Source: a virus. From it: DNA of 64,000 nucleotides. Of the stretch, positions 1,463 through 58,321 are shown in pieces. The stretch covers positions 1-64,000 of IMG/VR virus record IMGVR_UViG_3300028920_000032; one strand, 5' to 3'. Position 1 is the stretch's first letter, and each line of letters begins with the position of its first letter. The translations under genes and the position numbers were made by a program. The notes beneath the pieces are model-generated. The model saw only the letters and a program-made list of their open reading frames with translations. It was not told the origin of the DNA and ran no database searches.

Positions 1463-4400
1463 TTAAATTAGAATCCATATTCTCTTTGGTTTATTGTCAT
1501 ATGAAGATTCCAATACTTTACCTATAATTATGCCACGATCTTTTCTTTCTTCTTCTGTCGCTTTAGTTGCAAAACCATCATAATAAGAAACTAACATATC
1601 ACCAATTTCTAATGGTTCAGCAATCCAAACTTTTACTTTGCCAGACAGACCAATTGGTATTCTAGAATCTTTTATTCCTATTCCGCCAGAACCAAGACAA
1701 AATCCATATGTATCAGAGTAGACTCCTACTACTGCTTTGTCGGCTCTCTTCGAAGATAGCTCTATTCCTTGATCAGTCATTACATAAACATATCCAGGTT
1801 TATGGTCAGAGCTAGTTGGGGATATATCAAAACCCTCAGCCAAGTCATTCCATACCGCATTATAAATTCTATGTGCGGCGAATGCTCCTGCGACTCCAAC
1901 TCCATGTATTTTAGAATTTCCACTAGTTCCAGGTGTGGTAACATTGACACTTACTCCAGCATCTCTATCACTTGGTTCTAATATTTCACCTTTATGAGCA
2001 TTAGTTATAGTAATAATATTTGAATTTCTAGTTGCTCCAAAATCTGATAATGCATCTATTTCATCTTTAGTTTTTTCTGCTAGATTGATATTAGTTTCAT
2101 TTTCAATAATAGTTACTTGAATACCAGTTCCAACTGCTGTACCACCAGTACTTGGATTAATACCTTGTTGTGTGACATTGATTGTCCAAGCTAAACTTCC
2201 TCCAGTTGCATCCGTTACATCTGCAGGTGCCGCTGTTTCAGTATACAATGCCGCTCCAACTCTAGTTGCATTAAATTCATACATAGCATCTAATACATCT
2301 TTTGTTTTTTCTGCAACATTATCAGCAGTTTCATTTTCAATTATAACAACTTCTATACCAGATTTGTTTGCAACCTTTGGATCAGTTGAATCATCTACTC
2401 CTGGAGTTGTAACATTTGGTACTGCTACCCATGTTACATCTCCTGAATCAGGATTAGTCACATTTCCATTATAAATCATTGTAACTGTAAATACATCAGA
2501 TACATTACCAGAAGCAAAATCAGTAGAATAATTATCAATTGCTGTAGCTGTCTTAGCAGCCATATTAACTGCTGTTTCTGCATCAACTACTTCTACTCTT
2601 ATTCCATAAGCATCACTTATTTGTGGATCAGTATAAGTATATGATGAATCATCATACCAAACATAATATTTTATTTCTTGACCATTTGCATTGTTTGCAT
2701 AGAATACAAAATATTTACTAAATTGTTGTCCAGCAGCATTATCATCTGGTCTAGCATTAAATATTTCAACATTTCCTAAAATATTATACCATACATAATA
2801 TGTACCAGTCTTTGAGTTGAGCGTCCAATATTTGCCACTATGAGATTTGCTTGAATCAGCAGTACATGAAATTGTTGTCATTTCAACTTGTCCTGCAGTG
2901 CTTGGATCTCCTGGATCATATGATGGTGTTATTCCTTGTTGTGTAACATTAACACTTACTCCAGTTGTTTGATTTGTTGCGTCATCAATATGACCTTTGT
3001 AATTATTAGTAATAGTCACAACAGCTGAAAGGAAACTAGCTGTAAAATCAGCTAATGCTGTAATCGCTGTGGCTGTTTTGTTTGCCACATTAGTTGCTGA
3101 ATCAGTATAAGCTAAATCAACTTTTATACTAGTTCTTCCAGCAACATCTGGATCAACTGATTCATTTAAACCATTTGTAGTAACTGTTACAGAATCAACT
3201 GCTCCATCTCCAATAGAAGCATTTGTTACAGCTCCTTCTGTAATATTAGTTACTGTTATAACATCTGCTCCTGGTGCAGGAACTGAAAATTGTGGAGTTG
3301 CATTCAATATAGTAGCAGTCTGTGTAGCAACTTGACTTGCTGTCCAACCAGCAGTAATTTCAATTCTTATTCCAACTCTGTTTGGTAGCTGTGGGTCTGT
3401 ATAAGTTAATATAGAATCATCATACCATACATAATAATATCCTTCTGGTGCAGAAATTGTCCAATATTTTCCAAATGAATTAGTTGCATCTTTACAATCT
3501 ACTTGAGTTACCTCAGCCACTTCATCAACATGGTACCAAACATAGAATTCGTCATTTGGTGAATTCAAATACCAATATGTTTCAGAAAGTGCTCCGGCCG
3601 TACTTCCTGGACATGTAACTTCTGTTATTTCATATTGTCCGTCATCAATATAATACCATACATAATATTCTTCATTTACAGAACTTAAATTCCAATATTT
3701 ACCAGATAATGATCTAGCCGTGTCAGAAGGACATGAAATTTCAGCAATTTGTGCTACTCCATTTTGTGATTCGTTTGCATAATTTAGTGCATCATCTGTA
3801 TATTCAATTTTAGCATTAGTAAGGTCATCCTCCCAAGCTATATAATTTCCAGTTTTCATTTCTACTGTTGTGTCAACCTCTAGTGTTGTACATACTAGCT
3901 CAACAACATCTAAAGCAGAAATTTTTATATCATCACCTTGAATTATAAAGTTAGTTAATTCTGAAACTATTTCCCAAGTGTCAGATCCATTACCATTACC
4001 AATATAACCAGCTCTGTCGCCTGAATCATTTCTAAATTCAACATAACCATAACTCGCATCATCACCCTGTTGAACTGTTATTGCATGATTAACAACTAAA
4101 TTACCAGCTGTTAGCTCAGTTGTTCCTCTACCTATTAATATTCTATCATCAGCCGCATTAACAAATAACATATATTCTTCATTTTCTGATTCTATTCTAA
4201 AATCATAATCTAATCCATCTTCATTAAATATAGCAATTGTTGGTGTTAGTCGTAACCTTTCTGTGCCATCTGTTCTGTTTTGCGTTCCGTCGCCACTTCC
4301 ACCATCTGTACTTGATCCAGTAGAAAATGTTATTATTCCCGTTCCATTGGCTACTAAATTAAAATCTTGATCACTTTGCCAAGTACCAATATGAGTACCA

Positions 4401-7400
4401 TCAATACTGATATTGTTATTAGTTCCGTCTTTAATTATCCAAGCATCTTGTGATTCATCAAATCTAATTTCAGCATTAGTTTCAGTTCCTCTTTCTACTT
4501 CAAAATAACCATCATTAAATTCTGGTGGAGTTCCAGAAAATCCATAACGAACAGTTATATGATCATCAAATGTTGTCAATGTAGTAGTTGAATCAATTTC
4601 CATTACTGAAGCTTTTATTATTCCATTAATTTCTAAACAACCAGAACCAAATATTGCTAAATCACTACCTTGATGTCTAATAATAAATTTATCATCAAAA
4701 TCATCTGCAATCTCAACTATTAATGATGTATTACCAATGTCATCAACTTCAGTATATATAGTACCTTCATCTGATGCGTCAACTCCTGAAAATGTTATTT
4801 TATTAACTATAACATCACCAACATTATTATTATTAGATCTTAAGAAAGGATTCATTTTTCCTCTAAATATCTCAACTTCTTTTGATGTTATTGGTTCATC
4901 TCCAATTCTTATTAAACTATATAACGATTCAGCTTTTGCTGTACCATCTGGTCTTCCACCAATAAATGTCATAATACTTGGCTTAAAATCTACTAATGAG
5001 GCTGGGCTAAATGAAGCTTCATAAACAGTTTCATCAATATACATAGTTAATAAACCTTCATCAACATCCCAGTTGACTACTATTGTTTTTCTTTCATTTA
5101 GGTCGGTTAGCTTCTTTGTGACATCAGCTACTCCATAAGCTCCTGATTCTACTGATACTGTGTTTCCTGTATTATCTCTTAATAAGAACTTAAAATGATC
5201 GCTAGATGCTTCATAAAATAATTCATGAGTTACATATACTGTACCAGTATCATCAACTGCTCTACCTGCTACCAATGAATGATTGTTACTGTCATTATAT
5301 AAAAATTCAGGAGTAATTCTTAAGAATATATTTCCTTTTTTCTTCATAGACGTTGGATAATATAATAGACTTGTTTCATTAGCATCTATAGATGTTGGCC
5401 AATTGTTTGCTTCTATTTTTACATTATCAATTAAAAATTCATCAATTCTAGAGTCTTCATCACTATTCATTGATTTAATGTGCACATCAACATAACCTGT
5501 GTTATCAACTGTAAAACCAATAGCAAATCTTTTTATTCCATTAAAATTAATTTGTCTAATGTCAATATCTGTTAAGTTGTCATTTTCTGTTTCATGCGAA
5601 TATGTTCCATCTTCATTGAATTGTACTACTATGTCATCATCTAAAGCTGTACCAGTTAATTTCAATTCTATTGTTCCAATCTGTATAAATTGTACTCCGC
5701 TTATATAATGTTTTGAAGAAGAATTAGTTATAGTTGCCCTAGACCATATATCACCTTGTCCATATCCAACTGTAAATTCTCCAATATAATCATCTTCTGT
5801 TGAAAAAGCTTCTACTCTTACATCATCAATATAGAATTTAGATTCACTAGTTGGATTATGACTACCTGATTGACTACCAATAGAAATTTCAACTGGTGTT
5901 CCTAAGGCAGGCATTCCAGCTACTCCAGTTTGGTCAATTACTTCTACTCCATCAACTGCAATTTTATAACCACCATCTAGTGGGTGTATTGCATCAGCTA
6001 AATAAGCAATGTCAATATATTGTTCTACACCATAATTTATAACACTAGTAGCAGTAGTATCAGTTCCTGCAACACTATGTGAAGCTCTTAATTTGAATTT
6101 TCCATCGGCAGTATTGAGTTCTAATTCAACTATTACATTATTTACTCCACCTGGACCAAATTGACAAATTTCTATTCTCTTTGGATCAGATCCTCCGAGA
6201 ACAAAATTGCTATTAATTTTTATATAGAATCTTGCGTAAGTATAAGCATCACCTGAAATACCAGTTTTCTCTAAGTATAAGATAGGACCTGTTCCGTCAT
6301 ATTCAAATTCATAGCCATAATCACCATGCATTGCTGAACCAGCAGTTGCAGATATTGTTCCATCTGTTTGATCATTGCCACTAAACTGTGAAAGATCATT
6401 AGTTTCTGCATTACCTATAAATTCTCCAGTTTCATCAGCAGCTGCTGTATGATTAAATCTTACATGTAATGCATCACCAAATAAAGTCCTAGTTTCATAA
6501 GTTTCAGCAGTGAATTCGTCATAAGTTCCTGTAAAATCTCGGTACCAACCAATTGGTAATTCATTTTCTGAATTTACTAACCATCCTTCGCTATCTGTGT
6601 CTACTGCTCCAATTAATGTTAATTCATTTGTTATATATGAAGTACCTAATGCAAATGATAAAAAGTTCTTTTCTATAAAACTTCTAATATTGTCTGATTG
6701 ATTTAATTTAATTCCGTTTCCATCAAAAATACTATATGTTATTTCTTTTGAAGTATCATCTTGATTGACAAACATTATATTGCTACCTGGAACTAATCTC
6801 ATGTCATCAGTTCTGCTTTCTGGTGCATTAGTTGTAAATATACTCTCATTTGAAATGATGTCTTTTCCTTCTACCGTTTTAATTGAAAAATTAATTGGTG
6901 AATCTGTTCCAGCATTATAATCTTTCCATTTAATTACAAAATTACCATTGGGAAGTACTAGTGCTTGTAAATCTGTTGGTGTTTGAGATGATATAAGAGT
7001 ATCATGGCTTAATATTACTGTAGATAAATTAGAAGAATACATTGTGTAATTTAAATTATTAGAAGGATCTACAGTATAAAATATAGTGTATGTTTCATTA
7101 CCATTTTGATCTGTTGTTTCTGCAATTGCAACATAAGAAATATCATCTCCATCGCTTATTGCAGTTTTTGCATGTACATCAACCCCAGTTGTTATATTCA
7201 TTACTTTTGCATAGCCTTGATTTGCGATTGAATCGTGAAACGCAAAAGCAGCATAATCATTATCGTGTCCTCTACAAGCATACACATGATCAGCTGTATT
7301 AGAATCAATCGCATATTCTGAAGAAATTGCATGACCAGTAATTGCTATTGTTCTGAAGTAAGCTTTATTGTCTGAAGATTTAATATAAGTTATTATAACA

Positions 7401-10400
7401 TAAGATCCATATACTGCTAACCATCCTTCAAGTAGTGTATCAGAAGCAACAATCATTGTTGAGTCAGAGACAGCATATGTTGTGTAATTTACAAACTCTA
7501 CATAAACATTTCCATCGCGTTCTAATAAAACTATTACTAATTCATTAGTTGGGTCAGCTGTTGATATTGCCGGTTCGGCGTCCCATATTTTACTAACTAC
7601 TTGTCCAACAGAAGACCATTGGTGTGCTTCTCTTCTATCATACCAAGTATCAGAATCAAATTTTCCATAAGTTAATAGGTTAGTATGTTGATCTTCAATT
7701 GCAATTGCATGATTTTCTAATCCTTCGTAATAACGAGCATTAATTTTGTAATCTCTAAATGGTTCTACTCCATTATCAGAATATGGATGAGAATTATTAC
7801 ATTGTACTATTAATGTAGAATTTTTATCATCTAATCTTGGTACATTATAGTTTGTTTCTTTTATATCGATTATTGTTTTTGTACCAAATTCTTTGACAAT
7901 ATTAACTGGAATCAAATCTCTAGAAACTATTAATTTATCAACTAACATGCTGTATGTAGATGGTGTCCATGTTGACCATTCGTATCCAGAAATAGTTTGA
8001 GTCCAAGTAGATGTCCATCCACCACCCAAATTGAAATGAGTACTTAATATATTTCCTAAATGCCAATTGCTTGTTGTTATATCTGATCCTGCACTATCTT
8101 CAAATAAATTATTTTTTGGTGCATAAACTCTGTCTATATCTCTATCCCAAACAGTATATATTATTGTTTGTATTCTATTATAATCTCCTGCTCCATCACT
8201 TATGTCAACATAATCATATTTTGGATTATAAGTTTTACTTTGTTCTAATACAACTCCTAATTCATGCCATTGAGCATATTCAAAATTGTTGCTAGAATTA
8301 AAATATGGTCCAATTACTGATATTGTAGTTGTTAAACTGTTACTTATTATTAATTTAAAACAATAATTATCAGATGATAAATAATTTGTTCCATATGTTT
8401 TATTATCATATACTATTTGTATAAAATCAGCTCCATTCAAATTGAATGTACTTGTATCAGAATCATAATCTAAGCTATAACGTGAGTCAAATAAAATTCC
8501 AGATGTTTGATAAGAATCAGCTGGTTTAAAACGTAACCAATATGTAAAGTGATCAGAAACTAAATCACTTCTATATTCAATTCTTTGATCATCAAGTTTT
8601 AATATTGATTCTTCAGAAGAGTTCTCTTCATAGTTTTCAATACCTCTCTCAAATCTTTTCTCTATAAAAGCTCCGGCGTCATTTACTCTATCTACATATT
8701 TAAGAGCCAGTGAGTCAGCTGAATCACCTCTTGCTATTGATACAGAAGCTCCATTAGCATGTATATCTATTTCATCATTAGTTCCAAGTACTATAGTTGA
8801 ATCATTATTTACTATAGATCCTGTCCCAGCATTGTTTACTAAATAAAGCAATGATCTAGTTATTGTCACTATTGCATCACTATCAAACAATGTTTCATTT
8901 GCCGTTGGATCATATGGCAGTATAGAGTCAACAATTGAAATAGTTAGAGATGTTGAATATGGAGTAATTATTACTTTACGTCCACTTCCTAGTGTTGAAG
9001 TTTTTGCGTTAGTAATATTTGTGAATGTAAAAGTATTTGTTGCTGTCGTGTCATATGAATTTGGATTAAAATTTAATAATTGAGCATCATCACTTATATA
9101 TACATTATTAAAAGCTACTGATATTGCCCCATTAATATCATGAGTACCAGCATTACTTACTAATAAACCTTCTTGTTCAATAATAGAATTATCAACTCTT
9201 ACTATAATATTATCTAAAGCAACAGTAGTGTCTGTTATTATTTTTTTAAACTGACAATATTTTGCATTCAAATTATGATTGTTTGCTAATTTTAAATGAG
9301 TTGTAATTTTTATTCCTTGTAAATATACCTCACTACCAAGAGTTAATTGATCTATAATTGCAACATGTTCTGCAATTAATCGAATCCCAAATGTTTCGCT
9401 TATAGTTGCATTTGCTAATGTTGGAATAGTGAGATTAATATTTTTTATTATGACTATGTTTGGTCTAATTGCACTACATAATGTAAGAGCTTGTGCTAAA
9501 GTTTTTACTGGTGTTGATCTTGTTAAACCATCGCTAATGTCACTACCATTTACTGAGTCTAAGAAAATACATTCTGAATAATCTAAATTAGAATATTCTT
9601 GATTTCTTTTCCTATAATCATTTACTCCAACTGGATCTAATATTTTTACTAATTCATAGTCAGCATTTACTACTTCTTTTTTAGTTACTTCAATATCTTT
9701 TAATGGTGTCAAACCTCTTGTAGAAATTAATTCATTTTCTGATTTAAAATAATGAATATTACCATCTAAATATATTCTTCCTTTTTCGAATTCATCTGAG
9801 GAATAATATGGTGCTCTAGATATATTGTTTTGATTATAATCTTGAGAATTAACAAATATTGTATATAAAAAATTGTATTGATCTTGATCAAGTAAAGGTA
9901 AATTCACATATGGCAAATCTGGATCAGGTGCACCCTTTAATATATCAATTCTATTTCCTAAATCATTTATATTTTTATTAACTCTTACTAAGTCAATTCT
10001 TGGTAAAAAGAAAGAATAATCAGTTGTTATAGGATCGGTAGTATCTGTTGACCACAATGCTATGCCATAGTGCAATGCACCAATTCTTGCTAATGGTCTT
10101 GATAGTGATATTTCACTATTTGATAAGTTTTGTGGTTGACTTGCATGAAATTCATCACTTAATTCTGTTTGAGTTGTTGGTACTATAGTTCCCAAATCAA
10201 CTTTTTTTAAGACTTTTTCAGTTTTAATGTCAACAAAATATATATCTTCTGGAGTGATTGTATTAGGTGTATCTTTTACAACTATTCTTTTCCCTTCTAT
10301 TTCATATGTCCATTCTCCAGTTAGTGGTAAATTATCAGCTCCACCAACTTTAGCAGCGACTTTAGCAAGCATTTTCCACATCCAAAAATCTAGCCATATA

Positions 10401-13400
10401 GTATCACCAGTGTCTACTCTAGTTGTACCATTAGGGATATAAATTCTGAAGTCATGACTAGTTGGGTGATATGGTACTAAGAAATAATCTGCATTTTCCC
10501 ATGTAAACCCAAATGTTTGTGTTCCTTCTGTAACTAATGTTGTTGAACCTGGTATGGGTGTGTTTAGTATAATATCTAATCCATCTCTACTAAATAAATA
10601 AGTTCCAGATGAATCTTCTTCAATAAGTACTGATGAATCATCACCAGTTGTTGCTGAAGTAATTACTATATCACAATATTCAGCAGTTGCACCAATTGTT
10701 TGTAGTGAAGCTGTTCCACCTGTAAGATCTGTATTAATTGCTGATAATAAATCAGTCATAGTTTGTGCAGCTGAACCAGCAAAAGAAACATTATCAACAA
10801 CTGGTGTTCCACCAGCATCAAATGTTACTTTAAAAGTAAAAGTTGTTGAATCATTTGGTAATCCAGTTGCAGTAGATCCTGAAATAATTTGTCCTCTACC
10901 CTGTGAAAAACCTAATTCATTAGTAGAGTTTGTTTTTATTCTTAAACTTCCAGCAAGTATCTGATAACCTGTAGAAACTGCTGAATTAATAGATACATAT
11001 GTATTTCCGCCAAAACTAAAACTGCTTGAAGAAACTCTTCTTAGTTGATAACATTCAGCGCTATTCCAATCTAATAATTGTAAATTAGCTTCAGCATAAT
11101 CACCAATATCCATTTCTATTGTTCCGACACCAGTACCTAAAATGCTAGTTCCTTGTGTTGGGTTTAACAATTTAATTGCACAGTCTGTTTGTGTAGTTTC
11201 TTGAGTATTTGTGTGACCACTTCCTTCACCTGGATCAGCAGTCTTACTTTCAATTATTATTTTTTTAGTATTGTCTGAATAAGTGTCACCAAATTTTTCA
11301 TAATCAGTTATTGCTCTTGCTCTTATAACTGGTGTTAAGTCTACTTGTATACCAGAACCTTCTCTATATGCTGTTTTAAAACCATCTGCATTTATATCAT
11401 CACCATTGATCGCATCTACTACATCTTGTATTGTAGCTGCTGCTGATGCATCAAATACTATATTATATCCGCCAGAATCAGCATCTATGTCTCCATCATC
11501 ATAATCAACACCACCAACGTTAAATCCTTGAAGTATAATTCTAAATGATGAGTCACTATATAAATTAAATTGAAGTATACCTGACTTACTAGCTAATTGA
11601 CACCTTCCATCATCTAATTCTTCACTTACTTTTAAAATACATGGATCAGAATTTGCCAATGCTCCATTAGAAATTGTTGCATATAAAACATCTGCCGAAC
11701 TATCATAATAAGCACTATATGCATCTCTCTTAAAATATTTTTGTAATTTATTTAATGCATAGCTATAAAAACCACCATAAATAGTTGATGAGCTTCTAGT
11801 GCCACCTATGAAAATTCTATTATCAAATGCTTCAATATAATTTAATGTTGATATGTTGTCATCTATTTCTAAATGATCATTAGAATTTTCATAATTTGCT
11901 TCAACCCAACTAAATCTGGCAAATCTATCATCTCCTCCACCACCAATATCAGTATCATTATTTTGTGAATTACCAGTCCATATTTCTGGGCCATTTGCAT
12001 TATTTGTTATAAAAAGTTGGTATGTTTGTTCAGGATCTTCCCATCCATTATGTTTTACTATAGATTTTATATTATCAATTTGTGTCTTTTTATAAATTTC
12101 ATCTGCATACCAATCAAATGTTTGAGTACTATCATCATATAGTGCATATAATATAGGTGCATATATCCAATCAGTATATAAATTAGTAGTACTATCTCCA
12201 ACAAATATTAAATATTTGTTTGAAACCGATCCGCTTACATTAGCTTGCCAATCAATTGCATCATTAATTTGTGTAAACATTCGGTGAGTTAAATTAGTAA
12301 CCACTCCACCACTTTCACATTTTACTTCTGAAAAAACTGTTCCAGCCGCTAAGCCACTCCATACATCAGCAAAAAATATTCTATATGTGCTCATTATAAA
12401 TAAAAATCGTTTAGTATTAGCAACATCTTCATAAATAAAGAAATTATTAATTTGTTCACAGTTATTTAAGCTAGCATCAGTTAATTTCGTAAAAACTGTG
12501 TCTATATCTAAATCATCATTATATAAATTATTTGTGTCATCTGTAAAAAATAATTCACCTTCATTGTTTCCTATAATTAAATGTTCTTTTGAATTTGTTG
12601 TGAATGAATAGATTTTAGTAATATAAGCATCAGCTGTCCAACCTGAAGCATGTCCACTAAAATCTAATTGTATAACTCTGTCATGATGTGTTGACCATCT
12701 ATTATCACTTGTGTCAGATTTATAAGCATGTTCAGTATCTATATAATCTCTTATATCAGTTTCAGTGTCTGGAGTTATATATAATATATCATCACTATGT
12801 GAATAATAAGCTCTTTCTTTTTCTGAATCAGTATATATGGCAAATGTATTAATTTGTCTAGCTCTGGCAGTAATTGTATTACCAGTTCCTGCTACTGGTG
12901 AGGAGTGTGAAACGACTGGAGGAAAGCCAGCTGCTGGATATGCCGCACCAAATAAATTAGTTCCTGTTACTCCATCTCCTGTTTGTATAGAAGATTGTGG
13001 TCCATAAGAATCTGATACAAACTTTAAATCATTAGTTCCTGTAAATTCAAAATGAGCTTTACCTGATAATGCTGAATTAATTGCATTTACTACAGCAGCA
13101 TATGAAGTATCTGTAGAAGTCGTAAAATTAAATTCTTCTGCAGCTGCTCCATCTATTGTTAATTTAAAATAATAAGTACTTAATTGATTTAATCCTGAAT
13201 CATTATATGTAAATGGAATAGTTATTCCTAATTCTTGATATCCTTGAGTACTACTATTTGACATCACATATAATTCACAAGTATGATTATCATCTAATGT
13301 ATTATTTAATCCAACAGTAAAATTTCTAAAACCAGCATTAAACATTGCTTCAGTTAATTGTCGTCCTATTGTCTCAGCTTCAAAGTTAGATGTTGTAATT

Positions 13401-15034
13401 GAAGAACCATTAACTATTTCTTGATGATCTCCTGCTGAACTTGGATCTTGATATATAGGCCACTCACTGAATTCCCATCGAGTCTCTGCCCAAGTTGCGG
13501 CATCAACAGGAGTTTCAAAAGATGTACTAAGTGCTGTTTCTAAATAACCATTTGAAATATCAGTGTCATCAATTGCTATTTTTGAATAAGTACCACTAGA
13601 CTTTGAATATATTCTCATTTCCCAATTGCCACCATCATCAAATGTTCTAGTCCAAGCATAAACATCATTACTTGTAAATTCTGCATTTATCAAATCTCTT
13701 AGTTGATTCAATGTAGTAGTTCCAGTTACTGTAACTGTTATTATAACAGGAGTTCTATCTGGAGGATTTGTAGAATCGTTATTTAATATAATTCTAAAAT
13801 CATAATCATTTGCTGCTAAGCCTAAAGCAGCATCTGGATCTGCTACTGTTAAACCAAAGTCAATATATCCTCTAGTCTCTGGTGAATCAAATTCAATAAT
13901 TTTAAATGCTCCGCCAAATTGATCTGATTTTGCAATTTCAAATGAATAAGTTTGACTACCTAAAAAATCTCTATTGTCATATATAGGTAACAATATACTT
14001 AACGTAGTTTTGTGGTCATCAAAATATATTCTAGAAGTTTCATTATATTTTTTTAAACCGCCAATTACCCTTATAAAGTTAGTGTCGTTTTCTATTCTGT
14101 TAAAGTTAGTAGATTTTTGTTCTCTGAATACATCTGATTTTAGTTCAGCATGATATACTCCAGATTCTGCAAAAAAATCTGAAGCTAATAATTTATGACC
14201 AACTCTTCGTAAATTTTTAATTGTTTTAGTATCTTCACCAACTTCTAAAATTCCTAAATTGTTTGCTAATAATTGTACATATGAATCTGGATAGTGATTA
14301 TAACCTGGATATTCTACATCTTCACTAGTAAAATCAGTGGTTTCATCGTTTATGTCAAAAATAGAAGAAGAATATGGTACTACAAATTCATCACTTGAAT
14401 ATATTGGGAAATTATAAGAATCACTATCTGTATTAATTTGTCTGACGGTTATTATATATTCTTCATAATTAGCAGGTATTGAACTTTCGGAGACATCAGT
14501 ATAGATAGCTCTATAATATCCAGTATATGTTCCACTCGGATCATCTAATATAGGTGTAGTATCATAATTCCACGCATGTTCATCTGTCCATAAAGTAGTT
14601 CCATCATCTCTTTTAAAACCAATAATTTGTTTAAAATTACTAGTTATTGTTCCCTGTGTTTTGCTTAAAGCAATTCCTTTGCTTATTTTTAATGGTGTCA
14701 CGTCGATTACATTATAAAAATCTTCAGGATCTGTATAAGACTCTTCTGTACCTACTGTTAATTTCCAATCATCTTGAGTATTCTTTAATACAGCATTTAA
14801 ACCTTTATCAATATTTATTCCATTTATTGTATTGTTAACAACTTCATCATTAGATAAAAGGTTTATAATAGGTCTATTGTCATCCCAAGCACGTACTATA
14901 TCTTCATTTAAGTAGCCTTCAATACCGGGATCCCCATCAACATCTAATCCATAAGTATTAACATGATCAGTGCCTATATGTTCTGGGTGTGAATTCCCTA
15001 ATCGACCTGTACTCCATTTTTTCAAATCTGCCAT
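1463..15034 (-). CDS. giant (4523 aa) tail fibre/adhesin with LamG-like, beta-helix and propeller-like segments, nested repeats and a C-terminal intramolecular chaperone (Peptidase_G2-like)
   Basis: C-terminus DLAEGF...KPGYV...VVGVYSD...IPIGLSGKVKV...IGDMLVS..G.A...IIGKVLE is the typical IMC autocleavage domain; FLDSVNGSD..DGLT...PVKTLAQAL beta-helix cap; fibre motifs GYFEVERG and FNEDGLDYDFRIES; AGGAG SD. Confidence 0.85.
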   Translation of the reverse strand: MADLKKWSTGRLGNSHPEHIGTDHVNTYGLDVDGDPGIEGYLNEDIVRAWDDNRPIINLLSNDEVVNNTINGINIDKGLNAVLKNTQDDWKLTVGTEESYTDPEDFYNVIDVTPLKISKGIALSKTQGTITSNFKQIIGFKRDDGTTLWTDEHAWNYDTTPILDDPSGTYTGYYRAIYTDVSESSIPANYEEYIITVRQINTDSDSYNFPIYSSDEFVVPYSSSIFDINDETTDFTSEDVEYPGYNHYPDSYVQLLANNLGILEVGEDTKTIKNLRRVGHKLLASDFFAESGVYHAELKSDVFREQKSTNFNRIENDTNFIRVIGGLKKYNETSRIYFDDHKTTLSILLPIYDNRDFLGSQTYSFEIAKSDQFGGAFKIIEFDSPETRGYIDFGLTVADPDAALGLAANDYDFRIILNNDSTNPPDRTPVIITVTVTGTTTLNQLRDLINAEFTSNDVYAWTRTFDDGGNWEMRIYSKSSGTYSKIAIDDTDISNGYLETALSTSFETPVDAATWAETRWEFSEWPIYQDPSSAGDHQEIVNGSSITTSNFEAETIGRQLTEAMFNAGFRNFTVGLNNTLDDNHTCELYVMSNSSTQGYQELGITIPFTYNDSGLNQLSTYYFKLTIDGAAAEEFNFTTSTDTSYAAVVNAINSALSGKAHFEFTGTNDLKFVSDSYGPQSSIQTGDGVTGTNLFGAAYPAAGFPPVVSHSSPVAGTGNTITARARQINTFAIYTDSEKERAYYSHSDDILYITPDTETDIRDYIDTEHAYKSDTSDNRWSTHHDRVIQLDFSGHASGWTADAYITKIYSFTTNSKEHLIIGNNEGELFFTDDTNNLYNDDLDIDTVFTKLTDASLNNCEQINNFFIYEDVANTKRFLFIMSTYRIFFADVWSGLAAGTVFSEVKCESGGVVTNLTHRMFTQINDAIDWQANVSGSVSNKYLIFVGDSTTNLYTDWIYAPILYALYDDSTQTFDWYADEIYKKTQIDNIKSIVKHNGWEDPEQTYQLFITNNANGPEIWTGNSQNNDTDIGGGGDDRFARFSWVEANYENSNDHLEIDDNISTLNYIEAFDNRIFIGGTRSSSTIYGGFYSYALNKLQKYFKRDAYSAYYDSSADVLYATISNGALANSDPCILKVSEELDDGRCQLASKSGILQFNLYSDSSFRIILQGFNVGGVDYDDGDIDADSGGYNIVFDASAAATIQDVVDAINGDDINADGFKTAYREGSGIQVDLTPVIRARAITDYEKFGDTYSDNTKKIIIESKTADPGEGSGHTNTQETTQTDCAIKLLNPTQGTSILGTGVGTIEMDIGDYAEANLQLLDWNSAECYQLRRVSSSSFSFGGNTYVSINSAVSTGYQILAGSLRIKTNSTNELGFSQGRGQIISGSTATGLPNDSTTFTFKVTFDAGGTPVVDNVSFAGSAAQTMTDLLSAINTDLTGGTASLQTIGATAEYCDIVITSATTGDDSSVLIEEDSSGTYLFSRDGLDIILNTPIPGSTTLVTEGTQTFGFTWENADYFLVPYHPTSHDFRIYIPNGTTRVDTGDTIWLDFWMWKMLAKVAAKVGGADNLPLTGEWTYEIEGKRIVVKDTPNTITPEDIYFVDIKTEKVLKKVDLGTIVPTTQTELSDEFHASQPQNLSNSEISLSRPLARIGALHYGIALWSTDTTDPITTDYSFFLPRIDLVRVNKNINDLGNRIDILKGAPDPDLPYVNLPLLDQDQYNFLYTIFVNSQDYNQNNISRAPYYSSDEFEKGRIYLDGNIHYFKSENELISTRGLTPLKDIEVTKKEVVNADYELVKILDPVGVNDYRKRNQEYSNLDYSECIFLDSVNGSDISDGLTRSTPVKTLAQALTLCSAIRPNIVIIKNINLTIPTLANATISETFGIRLIAEHVAIIDQLTLGSEVYLQGIKITTHLKLANNHNLNAKYCQFKKIITDTTVALDNIIVRVDNSIIEQEGLLVSNAGTHDINGAISVAFNNVYISDDAQLLNFNPNSYDTTATNTFTFTNITNAKTSTLGSGRKVIITPYSTSLTISIVDSILPYDPTANETLFDSDAIVTITRSLLYLVNNAGTGSIVNNDSTIVLGTNDEIDIHANGASVSIARGDSADSLALKYVDRVNDAGAFIEKRFERGIENYEENSSEESILKLDDQRIEYRSDLVSDHFTYWLRFKPADSYQTSGILFDSRYSLDYDSDTSTFNLNGADFIQIVYDNKTYGTNYLSSDNYCFKLIISNSLTTTISVIGPYFNSSNNFEYAQWHELGVVLEQSKTYNPKYDYVDISDGAGDYNRIQTIIYTVWDRDIDRVYAPKNNLFEDSAGSDITTSNWHLGNILSTHFNLGGGWTSTWTQTISGYEWSTWTPSTYSMLVDKLIVSRDLIPVNIVKEFGTKTIIDIKETNYNVPRLDDKNSTLIVQCNNSHPYSDNGVEPFRDYKINARYYEGLENHAIAIEDQHTNLLTYGKFDSDTWYDRREAHQWSSVGQVVSKIWDAEPAISTADPTNELVIVLLERDGNVYVEFVNYTTYAVSDSTMIVASDTLLEGWLAVYGSYVIITYIKSSDNKAYFRTIAITGHAISSEYAIDSNTADHVYACRGHDNDYAAFAFHDSIANQGYAKVMNITTGVDVHAKTAISDGDDISYVAIAETTDQNGNETYTIFYTVDPSNNLNYTMYSSNLSTVILSHDTLISSQTPTDLQALVLPNGNFVIKWKDYNAGTDSPINFSIKTVEGKDIISNESIFTTNAPESRTDDMRLVPGSNIMFVNQDDTSKEITYSIFDGNGIKLNQSDNIRSFIEKNFLSFALGTSYITNELTLIGAVDTDSEGWLVNSENELPIGWYRDFTGTYDEFTAETYETRTLFGDALHVRFNHTAAADETGEFIGNAETNDLSQFSGNDQTDGTISATAGSAMHGDYGYEFEYDGTGPILYLEKTGISGDAYTYARFYIKINSNFVLGGSDPKRIEICQFGPGGVNNVIVELELNTADGKFKLRASHSVAGTDTTATSVINYGVEQYIDIAYLADAIHPLDGGYKIAVDGVEVIDQTGVAGMPALGTPVEISIGSQSGSHNPTSESKFYIDDVRVEAFSTEDDYIGEFTVGYGQGDIWSRATITNSSSKHYISGVQFIQIGTIELKLTGTALDDDIVVQFNEDGTYSHETENDNLTDIDIRQINFNGIKRFAIGFTVDNTGYVDVHIKSMNSDEDSRIDEFLIDNVKIEANNWPTSIDANETSLLYYPTSMKKKGNIFLRITPEFLYNDSNNHSLVAGRAVDDTGTVYVTHELFYEASSDHFKFLLRDNTGNTVSVESGAYGVADVTKKLTDLNERKTIVVNWDVDEGLLTMYIDETVYEASFSPASLVDFKPSIMTFIGGRPDGTAKAESLYSLIRIGDEPITSKEVEIFRGKMNPFLRSNNNNVGDVIVNKITFSGVDASDEGTIYTEVDDIGNTSLIVEIADDFDDKFIIRHQGSDLAIFGSGCLEINGIIKASVMEIDSTTTLTTFDDHITVRYGFSGTPPEFNDGYFEVERGTETNAEIRFDESQDAWIIKDGTNNNISIDGTHIGTWQSDQDFNLVANGTGIITFSTGSSTDGGSGDGTQNRTDGTERLRLTPTIAIFNEDGLDYDFRIESENEEYMLFVNAADDRILIGRGTTELTAGNLVVNHAITVQQGDDASYGYVEFRNDSGDRAGYIGNGNGSDTWEIVSELTNFIIQGDDIKISALDVVELVCTTLEVDTTVEMKTGNYIAWEDDLTNAKIEYTDDALNYANESQNGVAQIAEISCPSDTARSLSGKYWNLSSVNEEYYVWYYIDDGQYEITEVTCPGSTAGALSETYWYLNSPNDEFYVWYHVDEVAEVTQVDCKDATNSFGKYWTISAPEGYYYVWYDDSILTYTDPQLPNRVGIRIEITAGWTASQVATQTATILNATPQFSVPAPGADVITVTNITEGAVTNASIGDGAVDSVTVTTNGLNESVDPDVAGRTSIKVDLAYTDSATNVANKTATAITALADFTASFLSAVVTITNNYKGHIDDATNQTTGVSVNVTQQGITPSYDPGDPSTAGQVEMTTISCTADSSKSHSGKYWTLNSKTGTYYVWYNILGNVEIFNARPDDNAAGQQFSKYFVFYANNANGQEIKYYVWYDDSSYTYTDPQISDAYGIRVEVVDAETAVNMAAKTATAIDNYSTDFASGNVSDVFTVTMIYNGNVTNPDSGDVTWVAVPNVTTPGVDDSTDPKVANKSGIEVVIIENETADNVAEKTKDVLDAMYEFNATRVGAALYTETAAPADVTDATGGSLAWTINVTQQGINPSTGGTAVGTGIQVTIIENETNINLAEKTKDEIDALSDFGATRNSNIITITNAHKGEILEPSDRDAGVSVNVTTPGTSGNSKIHGVGVAGAFAAHRIYNAVWNDLAEGFDISPTSSDHKPGYVYVMTDQGIELSSKRADKAVVGVYSDTYGFCLGSGGIGIKDSRIPIGLSGKVKVWIAEPLEIGDMLVSYYDGFATKATEEERKDRGIIIGKVLESSYDNKPKRIWILI

Positions 15035-35586: not shown

Positions 35587-35633
35587 ACAATCAGTTTTAA
35601 TTATCTTTGAAGTTATTATAAATAGGTTTGTTT

Positions 35634-52920: not shown

Positions 52921-52959
52921 TATTATTATCTTTAAGGTAAGTTGTTTATTTTAGAAGTT

Positions 52960-56603: not shown

Positions 56604-57194
56604 TTATTTCCTTTTTGTTATCGATTTATAGACTAAAGAACCAGCTCCAGCTAACGCTATCATAATGGAATATTTCATTTTAACAATGAATTTATTATAT
56701 TGCATATCAGCTTCATAGATAAACCAATTATAATTAACTTTTTTTAAAATTTTAAATTTATCTTTAAATAAAGTTTTTTGATTTTCTTTTAAGAATTTTT
56801 TAAATTTTTTTTCTATAAAACTTTTAAATGTTGCATGCGGAACTTTATTTGTTATAACAAGAGGCAATGATTTTTTCCATTTCCACTCTAATGTTCTTGG
56901 AAACTCATAGGAAACTTTTGGATTTTTTAGAAAATTATCTTTTAGCCATCGCATTGCTCTAAATGCCACTGTAATCCTACGACTTGTTATTTCTTTTACA
57001 AAAATATAGTCTTTCTTTATGTCATCACTGATAGTTTCTTCAATTTCTTTCTTTAACTCTTTTTCACTTATTTTGTCTTCACTCTTTGCAGTTACTGGCC
57101 AAATAGGGTTGACATAGAGAAGAAATTCATTTTTGTGTGATTCGTAATTATACCAATCAAAACTTTTAGGTTTGATTTTGTCTTTCTTCCCCAT
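56604..57194 (-). CDS. hypothetical protein with C-terminal hydrophobic anchor (probable start MGKKD)
   Basis: C-terminal IMIALAGAGSLVY followed by basic residues. Confidence 0.65.
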   Translation of the reverse strand: MGKKDKIKPKSFDWYNYESHKNEFLLYVNPIWPVTAKSEDKISEKELKKEIEETISDDIKKDYIFVKEITSRRITVAFRAMRWLKDNFLKNPKVSYEFPRTLEWKWKKSLPLVITNKVPHATFKSFIEKKFKKFLKENQKTLFKDKFKILKKVNYNWFIYEADMQYNKFIVKMKYSIMIALAGAGSLVYKSITKRK

Positions 57195-57591
57195 TTTTAA
57201 ATCTTTCTCTTGTAACAGTTTTTTCATAACTTAAATCAAAAATTCTTCTATATTTGAAATCTGAAAAGAATCCTTCACCAGCAATATTGCGTGAAGTAAA
57301 TATTATTGTCGGTTCTCGACCGCGTATGGCTGAAATTTCGTTAATAATAAATACACATGCAATAGGAAGTCCAGGTAGATTTACCACAAACGGCTGATCG
57401 CTTAATATATACTTCTTTTGCTTTACTACTATATCATGACATTGTAAATATGGATTCTTTGACAAGTCTAGATTTACTTTAACCATGATCTGTTCACATG
57501 TCTTTGCGTCGACTTCTTCTTCGATGCTTTTTAACACTTCGTCTCTTAATTTCGCTCCGAAATTAAGTAAATATACTTTTTCATGAGACAC
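57166..57591 (-). CDS. Csx15-like protein (CRISPR type III-associated family)
   Basis: LLNF...L....L..IE...V.V..DL......Q...IV.......PFVVNLPGL......I.EI....G..PTII...R.......F....I.DL......R matches the Csx15 pattern as I recall it; same size (about 140 aa); GTG start with GAAGGTGG SD. Confidence 0.65.
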   Translation of the reverse strand: MSHEKVYLLNFGAKLRDEVLKSIEEEVDAKTCEQIMVKVNLDLSKNPYLQCHDIVVKQKKYILSDQPFVVNLPGLPIACVFIINEISAIRGREPTIIFTSRNIAGEGFFSDFKYRRIFDLSYEKTVTRERFKNGEERQNQT

Positions 57592-57643
57592 AACTTACCA
57601 CCTTCATAAATAATATTTTAATTATCTTGATAAATTGCGTTAA

Positions 57644-58321
57644 TTACTCATAATATGCCCAATGATATTTCCCTGCTCTTTTATATTGTCCTCTACAACA
57701 TAAACAAATACTCGTATAATTAGTTTTTGTAATAATTGATGCTTCTTTCATGCTTTCAAAAATTTGGCCAGTGTCTAAATTTATAACTGATTTTGATAAG
57801 TTCTTTTTATGCTTTTCAGAAAGATGTTTACCATAATTAGGATGATTCTTACCCTTATTAGATTTAGATATCTTTCTCTTTGTTTTTTCAGAGCGACATT
57901 TTCCTTTAAGTGAATTGGATATTTTTTCTCTTGTTTCTGCAGAAGGATTTTTATTTGCATCTGATATTTTTTTCTTATGTTCATCAGAAAGTTTTACTCC
58001 CTTCTTAGCTTTGGACATCTTTTCTCTTGATTCTTTAGAATAATATTTATTTTTATTACCACCAGAATCTAGATTATAACCTTTAGGATGCATTGCATCT
58101 AATCTTTTTATCATTTCTTTTTCAAAATAATCAAGTAATTCTTCTGGTACTACAAAAACAAATATGCTAAAATTTTTAATACCATATTTTCTTAGCGCTC
58201 TATTAATTATTTGTTTTTTATTTCTTAAGTGGCTTTTTAAACGAATTGTAAAAGTTCGAGTCGTTTGACCTACATAACATTTATTGTTTATTTTATTTTC
58301 TAAAATATATATTTGAGGCAT
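57644..58321 (-). CDS. GIY-YIG homing endonuclease with NUMOD3 repeats and NUMOD1/IENR1 HTH
   Basis: IYILENKINNKCYVGQT; GYNLDSGG; SxEx(R/K)xKISx repeats; FESMKEAS...ICLCCRG..KRAGKYHW. Confidence 0.9.
   Translation of the reverse strand: MPQIYILENKINNKCYVGQTTRTFTIRLKSHLRNKKQIINRALRKYGIKNFSIFVFVVPEELLDYFEKEMIKRLDAMHPKGYNLDSGGNKNKYYSKESREKMSKAKKGVKLSDEHKKKISDANKNPSAETREKISNSLKGKCRSEKTKRKISKSNKGKNHPNYGKHLSEKHKKNLSKSVINLDTGQIFESMKEASIITKTNYTSICLCCRGQYKRAGKYHWAYYE

Follow-up and report, generated by a model that had tools for sequence, protein, structure and literature searches.

The source is an IMG/VR virus record of 158,329 bp with 30% G+C, whose completeness is put at 70%; its first 64,000 bases (1-64000), called the window below, contain the gene considered here. 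The gene is a minus-strand coding sequence of 141 amino acids (57166..57591), assigned on the strength of its GTG start, family profiles, fold and conservation, and its product is referred to as the Csx15-like protein. The start codon lies 6 bases 3' of a ribosome-binding site, AAGGTGG. Directly downstream on the same strand, and overlapping it by 62 nt, is a second gene of 207 amino acids (56604..57227), here called the partner. On the upstream side, a GIY-YIG homing endonuclease with NUMOD3 (57644-58321, minus; PHROG 314, E 7e-40) sits between the gene for a 5'-3' exonuclease and the Csx15-like gene. The homing endonuclease looks like a recent insertion, since the corresponding spot in related phages (L002, L016, L018 and L019) holds an unrelated 160-aa ORF or nothing at all.

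The region between the homing-endonuclease gene and the Csx15-like gene (57592..57643, minus) is the sole gap of at least 25 nt between that endonuclease gene and the block downstream, and contains the Shine-Dalgarno sequence AAGGTGG (57598-57604) together with the promoter-like CAAGATAAT. An earlier reading of the DNA, made from the sequence only, had given the gene an upstream motif of its own, and AAGATAAT is indeed present at 57621-57628 (minus), 29 nt 5' of the start; across the window, however, it is not enriched, and with 15 matches against 13 +/- 3.2 expected it was rejected as a window-wide enriched motif. It occurs in three short intergenic gaps just 5' of genes, and in a looser form in 5 of 17 gaps. 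Elements of the form CAAGATAA(T/A) were seen at 35600-35607, 52925-52932 and 57621-57628, all on the minus strand and each in a short gap directly 5' of a minus-strand gene, with looser copies 5' of the genes ending at 15034 and 17151. Because elements of the CAAGATAA type recur in this way just 5' of several genes, a promoter role is plausible, and they are candidates for a phage promoter motif.

The peptide motifs quoted in the sequence-only reading are all found in the protein: LLNF at residues 8-11, NFGAK at 10-14, PFVVNLPGL at 67-75 and GREPTIIFTSR at 91-101. Its C-terminal signature, I.DL.....R.R, is there too, as IFDL and then R128-E-R130, although the spacing given before R.R was two residues short.

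Phage setting and the conserved partner gene

The supposed phage setting was borne out, the IMG/VR record carrying tail, baseplate, homing-endonuclease and DnaE replication genes. Among its products are a Tail_P2_I baseplate domain, a carbohydrate-binding tail-fibre-like protein and a tail PHROG match, as well as the GIY-YIG/NUMOD3 homing endonuclease, the FEN-type 5'-3' exonuclease and a split DnaE. In the last of these, DNA_pol3_alpha (PF07733) is divided over ORFs of 428 and 762 aa that lie about 6 kb apart, outside the window (G000:C1 82744-83055 and 89146-89628), with profile positions 2-100 in one ORF and 100-260 in the other. A single ORF of 4,523 aa (window 1463-15034, minus) gave no Pfam match at E <= 0.001, and the ORFs of 1,733, 1,585 and 1,109 aa beside it contain between them only the Tail_P2_I and carbohydrate-binding domains. 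A search for Terminase_6N returned nothing in the 70%-complete record.

The absence of cas genes and of a CRISPR array, first remarked for the window, holds for the whole 158,329-bp record, in which we found no regularly spaced CRISPR-like repeat array, no Csm1 or Cmr2 (Cas10) match, no AcrIII-1 homologue and no tyrosine integrase. That neither Cas10 nor an array accompanies the Csx15-like gene is as expected for a viral copy. No other anti-defence genes were found near it. The distant members of the family also have phage-like contexts, several of them amid genes for gp32, UvsX, DnaB, DnaE, primase and endonuclease V, and none adjoins cas genes. A search for sister phages based on the exonuclease returned only distant loci, without the Csx15-like gene.

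In the close clade the position of the gene is fixed, just 3' of the 5'-3' exonuclease gene and 5' of the partner, and the order exonuclease, Csx15-like protein, partner and a protein of about 500 aa is kept in L002, L016, L018 and L019. L003 and L004 share no further gene within 6 kb, and their Csx15-like proteins have just 44% identity, yet a homologue of the partner follows directly 3' there as well; at L013, where the identity is 41%, the match to the partner is weak (E 2.7e-4). The two genes overlap by 11-62 nt in most loci, and the members of the partner family are about 200-250 aa in length (L002 6362-7024; L003 6465-7211; L013 6356-6997). The more distant Csx15-like genes of L005, L006 and L009 are without the partner. 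We found no description of this pairing in the published Csx15 work cited here.

The AF2 model of the partner is confident (pLDDT 84.5). The protein matched no Pfam or PHROG family and gave no ESM Atlas lead, and its predicted structure had no match in the PDB (best Z 5.5) or in BFVD; judging from the model, the family may represent a new fold. Its C-terminal helix (residues 186-206) is hydrophobic or amphipathic, with lysines inside it in several homologues, and since its hydropathy is borderline, anchoring of the partner in a membrane by way of this helix is a candidate only and unproven.

Evidence for a Csx15 relationship

The relationship to Csx15 proposed in the sequence-only reading is supported from four sides: the NCBIfam profile, the sequences of solved Csx15 proteins, the predicted fold and language-model features. 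The HMMER comparison that it had suggested gave a match to NCBIfam CAS_Csx15 (NF040560) at E 1.7e-6 over profile positions 1-123 of 125, with a score of 28.2 bits that lies below the curated cut-off of 35 bits. The same profile is matched at E <= 0.01 by all 30 relatives compared, the best of them at E 3.6e-8. A profile built from the 50%-identity representatives reached the solved Csx15 entry 9teu_A (E 8.3e-7, full length), the Csx15 domain of CbCash (9ylu_A, 1.6e-5) and 9tet_A (8e-5), and an alignment of the wider family reproduced the matches to 9teu, 9tet and 9ylu. These solved entries were reached only by profiles that took in distant relatives; neither the single sequence nor a profile of the close clade found them. 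The PADLOC Csx15 profile matched weakly (E 0.017), Pfam gave no match even at E 10, and PHROGs gave none.

The AF2 model (pLDDT 78, pTM 0.70) has a Rossmann-like core with the predicted topology beta1-alpha1-beta2-alpha2-beta3-alpha3-beta4-beta5-alpha4. The proposed structural check was made against the ESM Atlas and the PDB. In the Atlas the best three matches of the model are Csx15-type clusters, two named Csx15 and one unnamed, with TM 0.74-0.75 by query and 0.82-0.83 by target over 123-124 residues (rmsd 2.2-2.4 A), and the next rows stand at 0.56-0.60; Foldseek against the PDB returned nothing at E <= 0.001. The nearest PDB folds are those of SAVED Cap5 (7rwk; Z 6.8, rmsd 3.6, 107 aa), TIR-SAVED (7qqk; Z 6.7) and the CARF domain of Csx1-Crn2 (Z 6.5), all PDB matches falling under the guide value of Z 8. 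SAVED proteins and CARF ring nucleases are the neighbours published for Csx15 too (PMC12409355). Language-model features place a Csx15 cluster at 0.91, the top score of 0.92 going to an unnamed cluster of similar size and taxa. Also among the structural neighbours in the ESM Atlas (TM 0.53-0.66) are Pam3 gp32-like clusters (PF23992) and MJ1673/Csx20 (PF27247), and the Pam3 gp32-like family recurs among the feature neighbours with a score of 0.90; these hint that related Rossmann-like folds occur in other small phage proteins.

A search of 5.8 billion proteins gave 68 clusters at 61-100% identity to the Csx15-like protein, all of them metagenomic and unnamed, so that the clade comprises at least 68 clusters at 90% identity, with 17 representatives at 50%. 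When 1.84 billion representatives were scanned exhaustively with HMMER, only 17 clusters reached E < 1e-3, and tblastn and blastn searches of GenBank phages found no relatives. Constraint on the gene shows in 42 residues that are the same in all of 30 relatives with 59-84% identity, among them N10, F11, G12, A13, Q50, H52, the NLPGLP loop, E85, R101, F112, R116, L120, R128 and K132. The residues treated as key in what follows are N10, F11, G12, A13, Q50, H52, L75, E85, S87, P94, R101, F112, R116, L120, K124, R128 and K132. That the frame at 57166..57591 is a chance ORF or a misannotation is next to inconceivable in the face of 68 homologues under strong constraint, a conserved start with a Shine-Dalgarno sequence and a confident fold, and conservation refutes it.

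Homology to the Csx15 fold is thus very probable, and we regard the protein as a divergent, phage-specific member of that fold, whose Rossmann-like relatives are CARF and SAVED. It resembles CliCsx15 (9teu), PfCsx15 (9tet), HaCsx15 and CsCsx15 in being a stand-alone protein of about 125-140 aa with a Rossmann-like fold, collinear with them over its full length. With Csx15 it has in common an N-terminal LNF, the N.PG loop, an E-x-x-x-x-x-G-x-x-P segment, an aromatic residue before the last helix, L120 and a basic C-terminal helix. In contrast to Csx15, it has Ala for the catalytic His, Ser for the central His and Leu for one stacking aromatic; its score is below the curated cut-off, and its gene is without Cas10 or a CRISPR array and is paired with a conserved gene of no known family. 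The idea of a captured Csx15 is not borne out: rather than a recent copy of a cellular gene, the protein is a member of a divergent clade seen only in phage-like contexts.

Lost histidines, retained ligand contacts and possible functions

Csx15 was characterised only in 2026, when both sponges and ring nucleases of this family were published (10.64898/2026.01.21.700848; 10.64898/2026.10.26.761840). Its dimers form head-to-tail filaments on cA4. The N-terminal His is needed for cleavage, HaCsx15 H8A and CliCsx15 H13A being inactive, and both of these variants still multimerise on cA4, and there are contributions from a triad of C-terminal arginines and from a central His (Pf H82, Cli H90) (10.64898/2026.01.21.700848; 10.64898/2026.10.26.761840). 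PfCsx15 is a cA4 sponge, the only Csx15 sponge demonstrated, and its H11A variant neither binds cA4 nor multimerises (10.64898/2026.01.21.700848). In CbCash, the Csx15 domain senses cA4 and thereby activates the effector fused to it (PMC13462974); in our HMM alignment it has Gln at both His positions, and it binds cA4 nonetheless (PMC13462974).

In the phage protein, the missing N-terminal His is confirmed. NFGAK places Ala13 opposite the catalytic residue of the NFSGH motif (H8 in Ha and Cs, H13 in Cli, H11 in Pf) in HMM alignments; an alternative placement of the gap would put Lys14 there instead. Ala13 is invariant in all 30 close relatives. Ser87 aligns with the central His of the ELHG motif (Pf H82, Cli H90), at a position where the clade has S, A, T, C or E. 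The wider family has His at the catalytic position (NFGH) in only 3 of 32 members (P0079, P0084 and P0085), and two of the 32 keep the central His, as ELH or YLH (P0073 and P0084). Since a few members retain these residues, the viral family, judged by alignment, spans forms that could plausibly cut and others that probably cannot.

Other residues of the site have been retained. Phe112 aligns with the adenine-stacking residues Cli Y113, Pf F106 and CbCash F275; it is invariant in the close clade, and 29 of the 32 wider members have F or Y there. The second stacking residue (F241 in CbCash, Tyr in 9teu) is Leu75 in the phage protein. Of the C-terminal triad that contacts phosphates (Ha R118/R122/R125; Pf R116/R120/R123), the first two arginines correspond to K/R124 and R128. 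Opposite the third stands F131, between K/R130 and the invariant K132, leaving no clean equivalent; K/R124, R128 and K132 are conserved, and with them a basic C-terminal helix. His52, in a QCHD motif, does not vary within the close clade; the wider family has V, I, L or R at this position.

The loss of both histidines used for cutting makes trapping or sensing of a ligand likelier than cleavage. The best reading of the Csx15-like protein, to which we would give a little less than an even chance, is that of a non-cleaving binder of cyclic oligonucleotides, that is, a sponge. It is suggested by the His-to-Ala variants of HaCsx15 and CliCsx15, which multimerise on cA4, by PfCsx15, itself a sponge, and by the cA4-binding domain of CbCash; it is suggested further by the kept Phe112 and basic helix, which match the ligand-contact residues of solved Csx15. 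The gene would be expressed from its own promoter-like element inside the replication-gene block, and the protein would bind a host cyclic oligonucleotide and leave it intact. The prime candidate for the ligand is cA4 made by Cas10 of type III CRISPR systems, with the trinucleotides of CBASS also possible. By analogy with PfCsx15, the signal would be sequestered between stacked dimers, and CARF or SAVED effectors would stay inactive as a result. What the analysis shows is the homology to Csx15, the fold, the substituted residues, the conservation and the phage context; that the protein binds a ligand, forms oligomers or counters host defence is what we infer. The same literature can be read the other way, since the failure of PfCsx15 H11A to bind cA4 means that the natural Ala13 could signify a complete lack of binding. 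Leu75, the lack of a clean third Arg and the NCBIfam score below cut-off also count against a sponge, as does the fixed position in a replication block with a coupled partner, which is unlike a typical mobile accessory anti-defence gene; such synteny and coupling fit a plain accessory anti-CRISPR, the role first proposed for the gene, less well.

These features of the locus would suit a fold that has been reused apart from immune signals, in the phage replication module, by a protein that binds nucleotides or nucleic acids or acts as a scaffold. The close-clade position between the exonuclease and partner genes, the distant relatives amid gp32, UvsX, DnaB, DnaE and primase genes, the loss of both signature histidines and one stacking residue, and the finding of no other anti-defence gene nearby are all consistent with such reuse. 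We nevertheless consider it rather unlikely, as the invariant N10, F11 and F112 and the basic helix are ligand contacts in solved Csx15 structures, and the papers cited here give Csx15 domains no role apart from binding, cleavage or sensing of cyclic nucleotides. Sensing itself offers another, unlikely alternative to a sponge, in which the His-less protein binds a cyclic nucleotide and then controls its co-translated partner, the two genes, with their overlap of 11-62 nt, forming a module that reads host immune signalling, for example for lysis timing or membrane action. The pairing persists at identities of just 41-44% between the Csx15-like proteins, in phages with nothing else in common within +/-6 kb, and CbCash, the one characterised His-less Csx15 domain, is a cA4 sensor driving a fused effector (PMC13462974). 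Fusions of Csx15 to transmembrane helices exist (10.64898/2026.10.26.761840), and the partner, with its confident model of no known fold, ends in a hydrophobic helix. On the other side, the distant members at L005, L006 and L009 do without the partner, its helix is of borderline hydropathy and contains lysines in several homologues, gene overlap is common in phage genomes, and contact between the two proteins is conjecture. The fuller version of this proposal, a sensor and output pair by which the phage would read the cyclic-oligoadenylate alarm and alter lysis or replication timing or act on the membrane, rather than merely soaking the signal up, we regard as more doubtful still.

Cleavage might also have been preserved by substitute residues, with the clade-invariant His52 of QCHD, Lys14 or Arg101 as candidates, and the invariance of His52, Gln50, Arg101 and Arg116 in the close clade is in keeping with a ring nuclease of this kind. 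So are the canonical histidines of distant viral relatives (NFGH in P0079, P0084 and P0085; ELH or YLH in P0073 and P0084) and the proposal of viral Csx15 proteins as ring nucleases, AcrIII-3 (10.64898/2026.10.26.761840). This reading we think distinctly improbable: neither of the enzymes tested still cleaved once its N-terminal His had been replaced by Ala (HaCsx15 H8A, CliCsx15 H13A), and His52 gives way to V, I, L or R in the wider family.

Comparison with known systems

The bacterial sponge PfCsx15 has both histidines, H11 and H82, and does not bind cA4 without H11 (10.64898/2026.01.21.700848). The phage protein lacks both, and in this respect it is like the Csx15 domain of CbCash (9ylu; PMC13462974), where both His positions have likewise been replaced in nature and F275 corresponds to F112. 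That domain, however, works in host defence and is joined to a Schlafen tRNase, whereas the Csx15-like protein is free-standing and phage-encoded.

Viral Csx15 proteins were proposed as ring nucleases under the name 'AcrIII-3' in an October 2026 preprint (10.64898/2026.10.26.761840), which found just over 20 viral homologues by BLAST and described them as rare and mostly prophage-borne (10.64898/2026.10.26.761840). Our clade is like AcrIII-3 in being a Csx15-fold protein on viral genomes that is known only from metagenomes. The AcrIII-3 sequences were found with canonical Csx15 queries, however, and the phage clade is too divergent for single-sequence search against solved Csx15; unlike that set, it is without the catalytic His, occurs in large DnaE-encoding phages and comprises at least 68 clusters at 90% identity. 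Viral Csx15 as such having already been proposed in 2026, what differs here from the published viral set is the divergent His-less clade and its conserved partner. In the outcome proposed for a sponge, the protein would resemble the phage cyclic-nucleotide sponges Acb2 and Tad1/Tad2 and the viral ring nucleases AcrIII-1 and AcrIII-2 (vSAVED), each a small, abundant phage protein that removes a host second messenger; the folds of Acb2, Tad1/Tad2 and AcrIII-1 are unrelated to that of the Csx15-like protein, vSAVED being the exception in that it resembles a tandem Csx15.

Where viral copies of Csx15 have been described as rare, mostly prophage-borne and presumed nucleases, the clade reported here is sizeable, every context examined is phage-like, several are among replication genes, and the close relatives have uniformly lost the catalytic His while keeping ligand-contact residues. 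Should cA4 or CBASS signals prove to be its ligands, the protein would be a natural sponge of viruses with the Csx15 fold, and the use of this fold by phages would be wider than is apparent from sequence searches. Through the partner gene one can ask directly whether the phage goes beyond quenching the host alarm and senses it.

Within the wider family, P0075 (283 aa; L010 4496-5347) consists of tandem viral Csx15-like domains, neither half of which has His at the catalytic position. Its architecture resembles the duplicated-Csx15/SAVED-like group and vSAVED (AcrIII-2) (10.64898/2026.10.26.761840).
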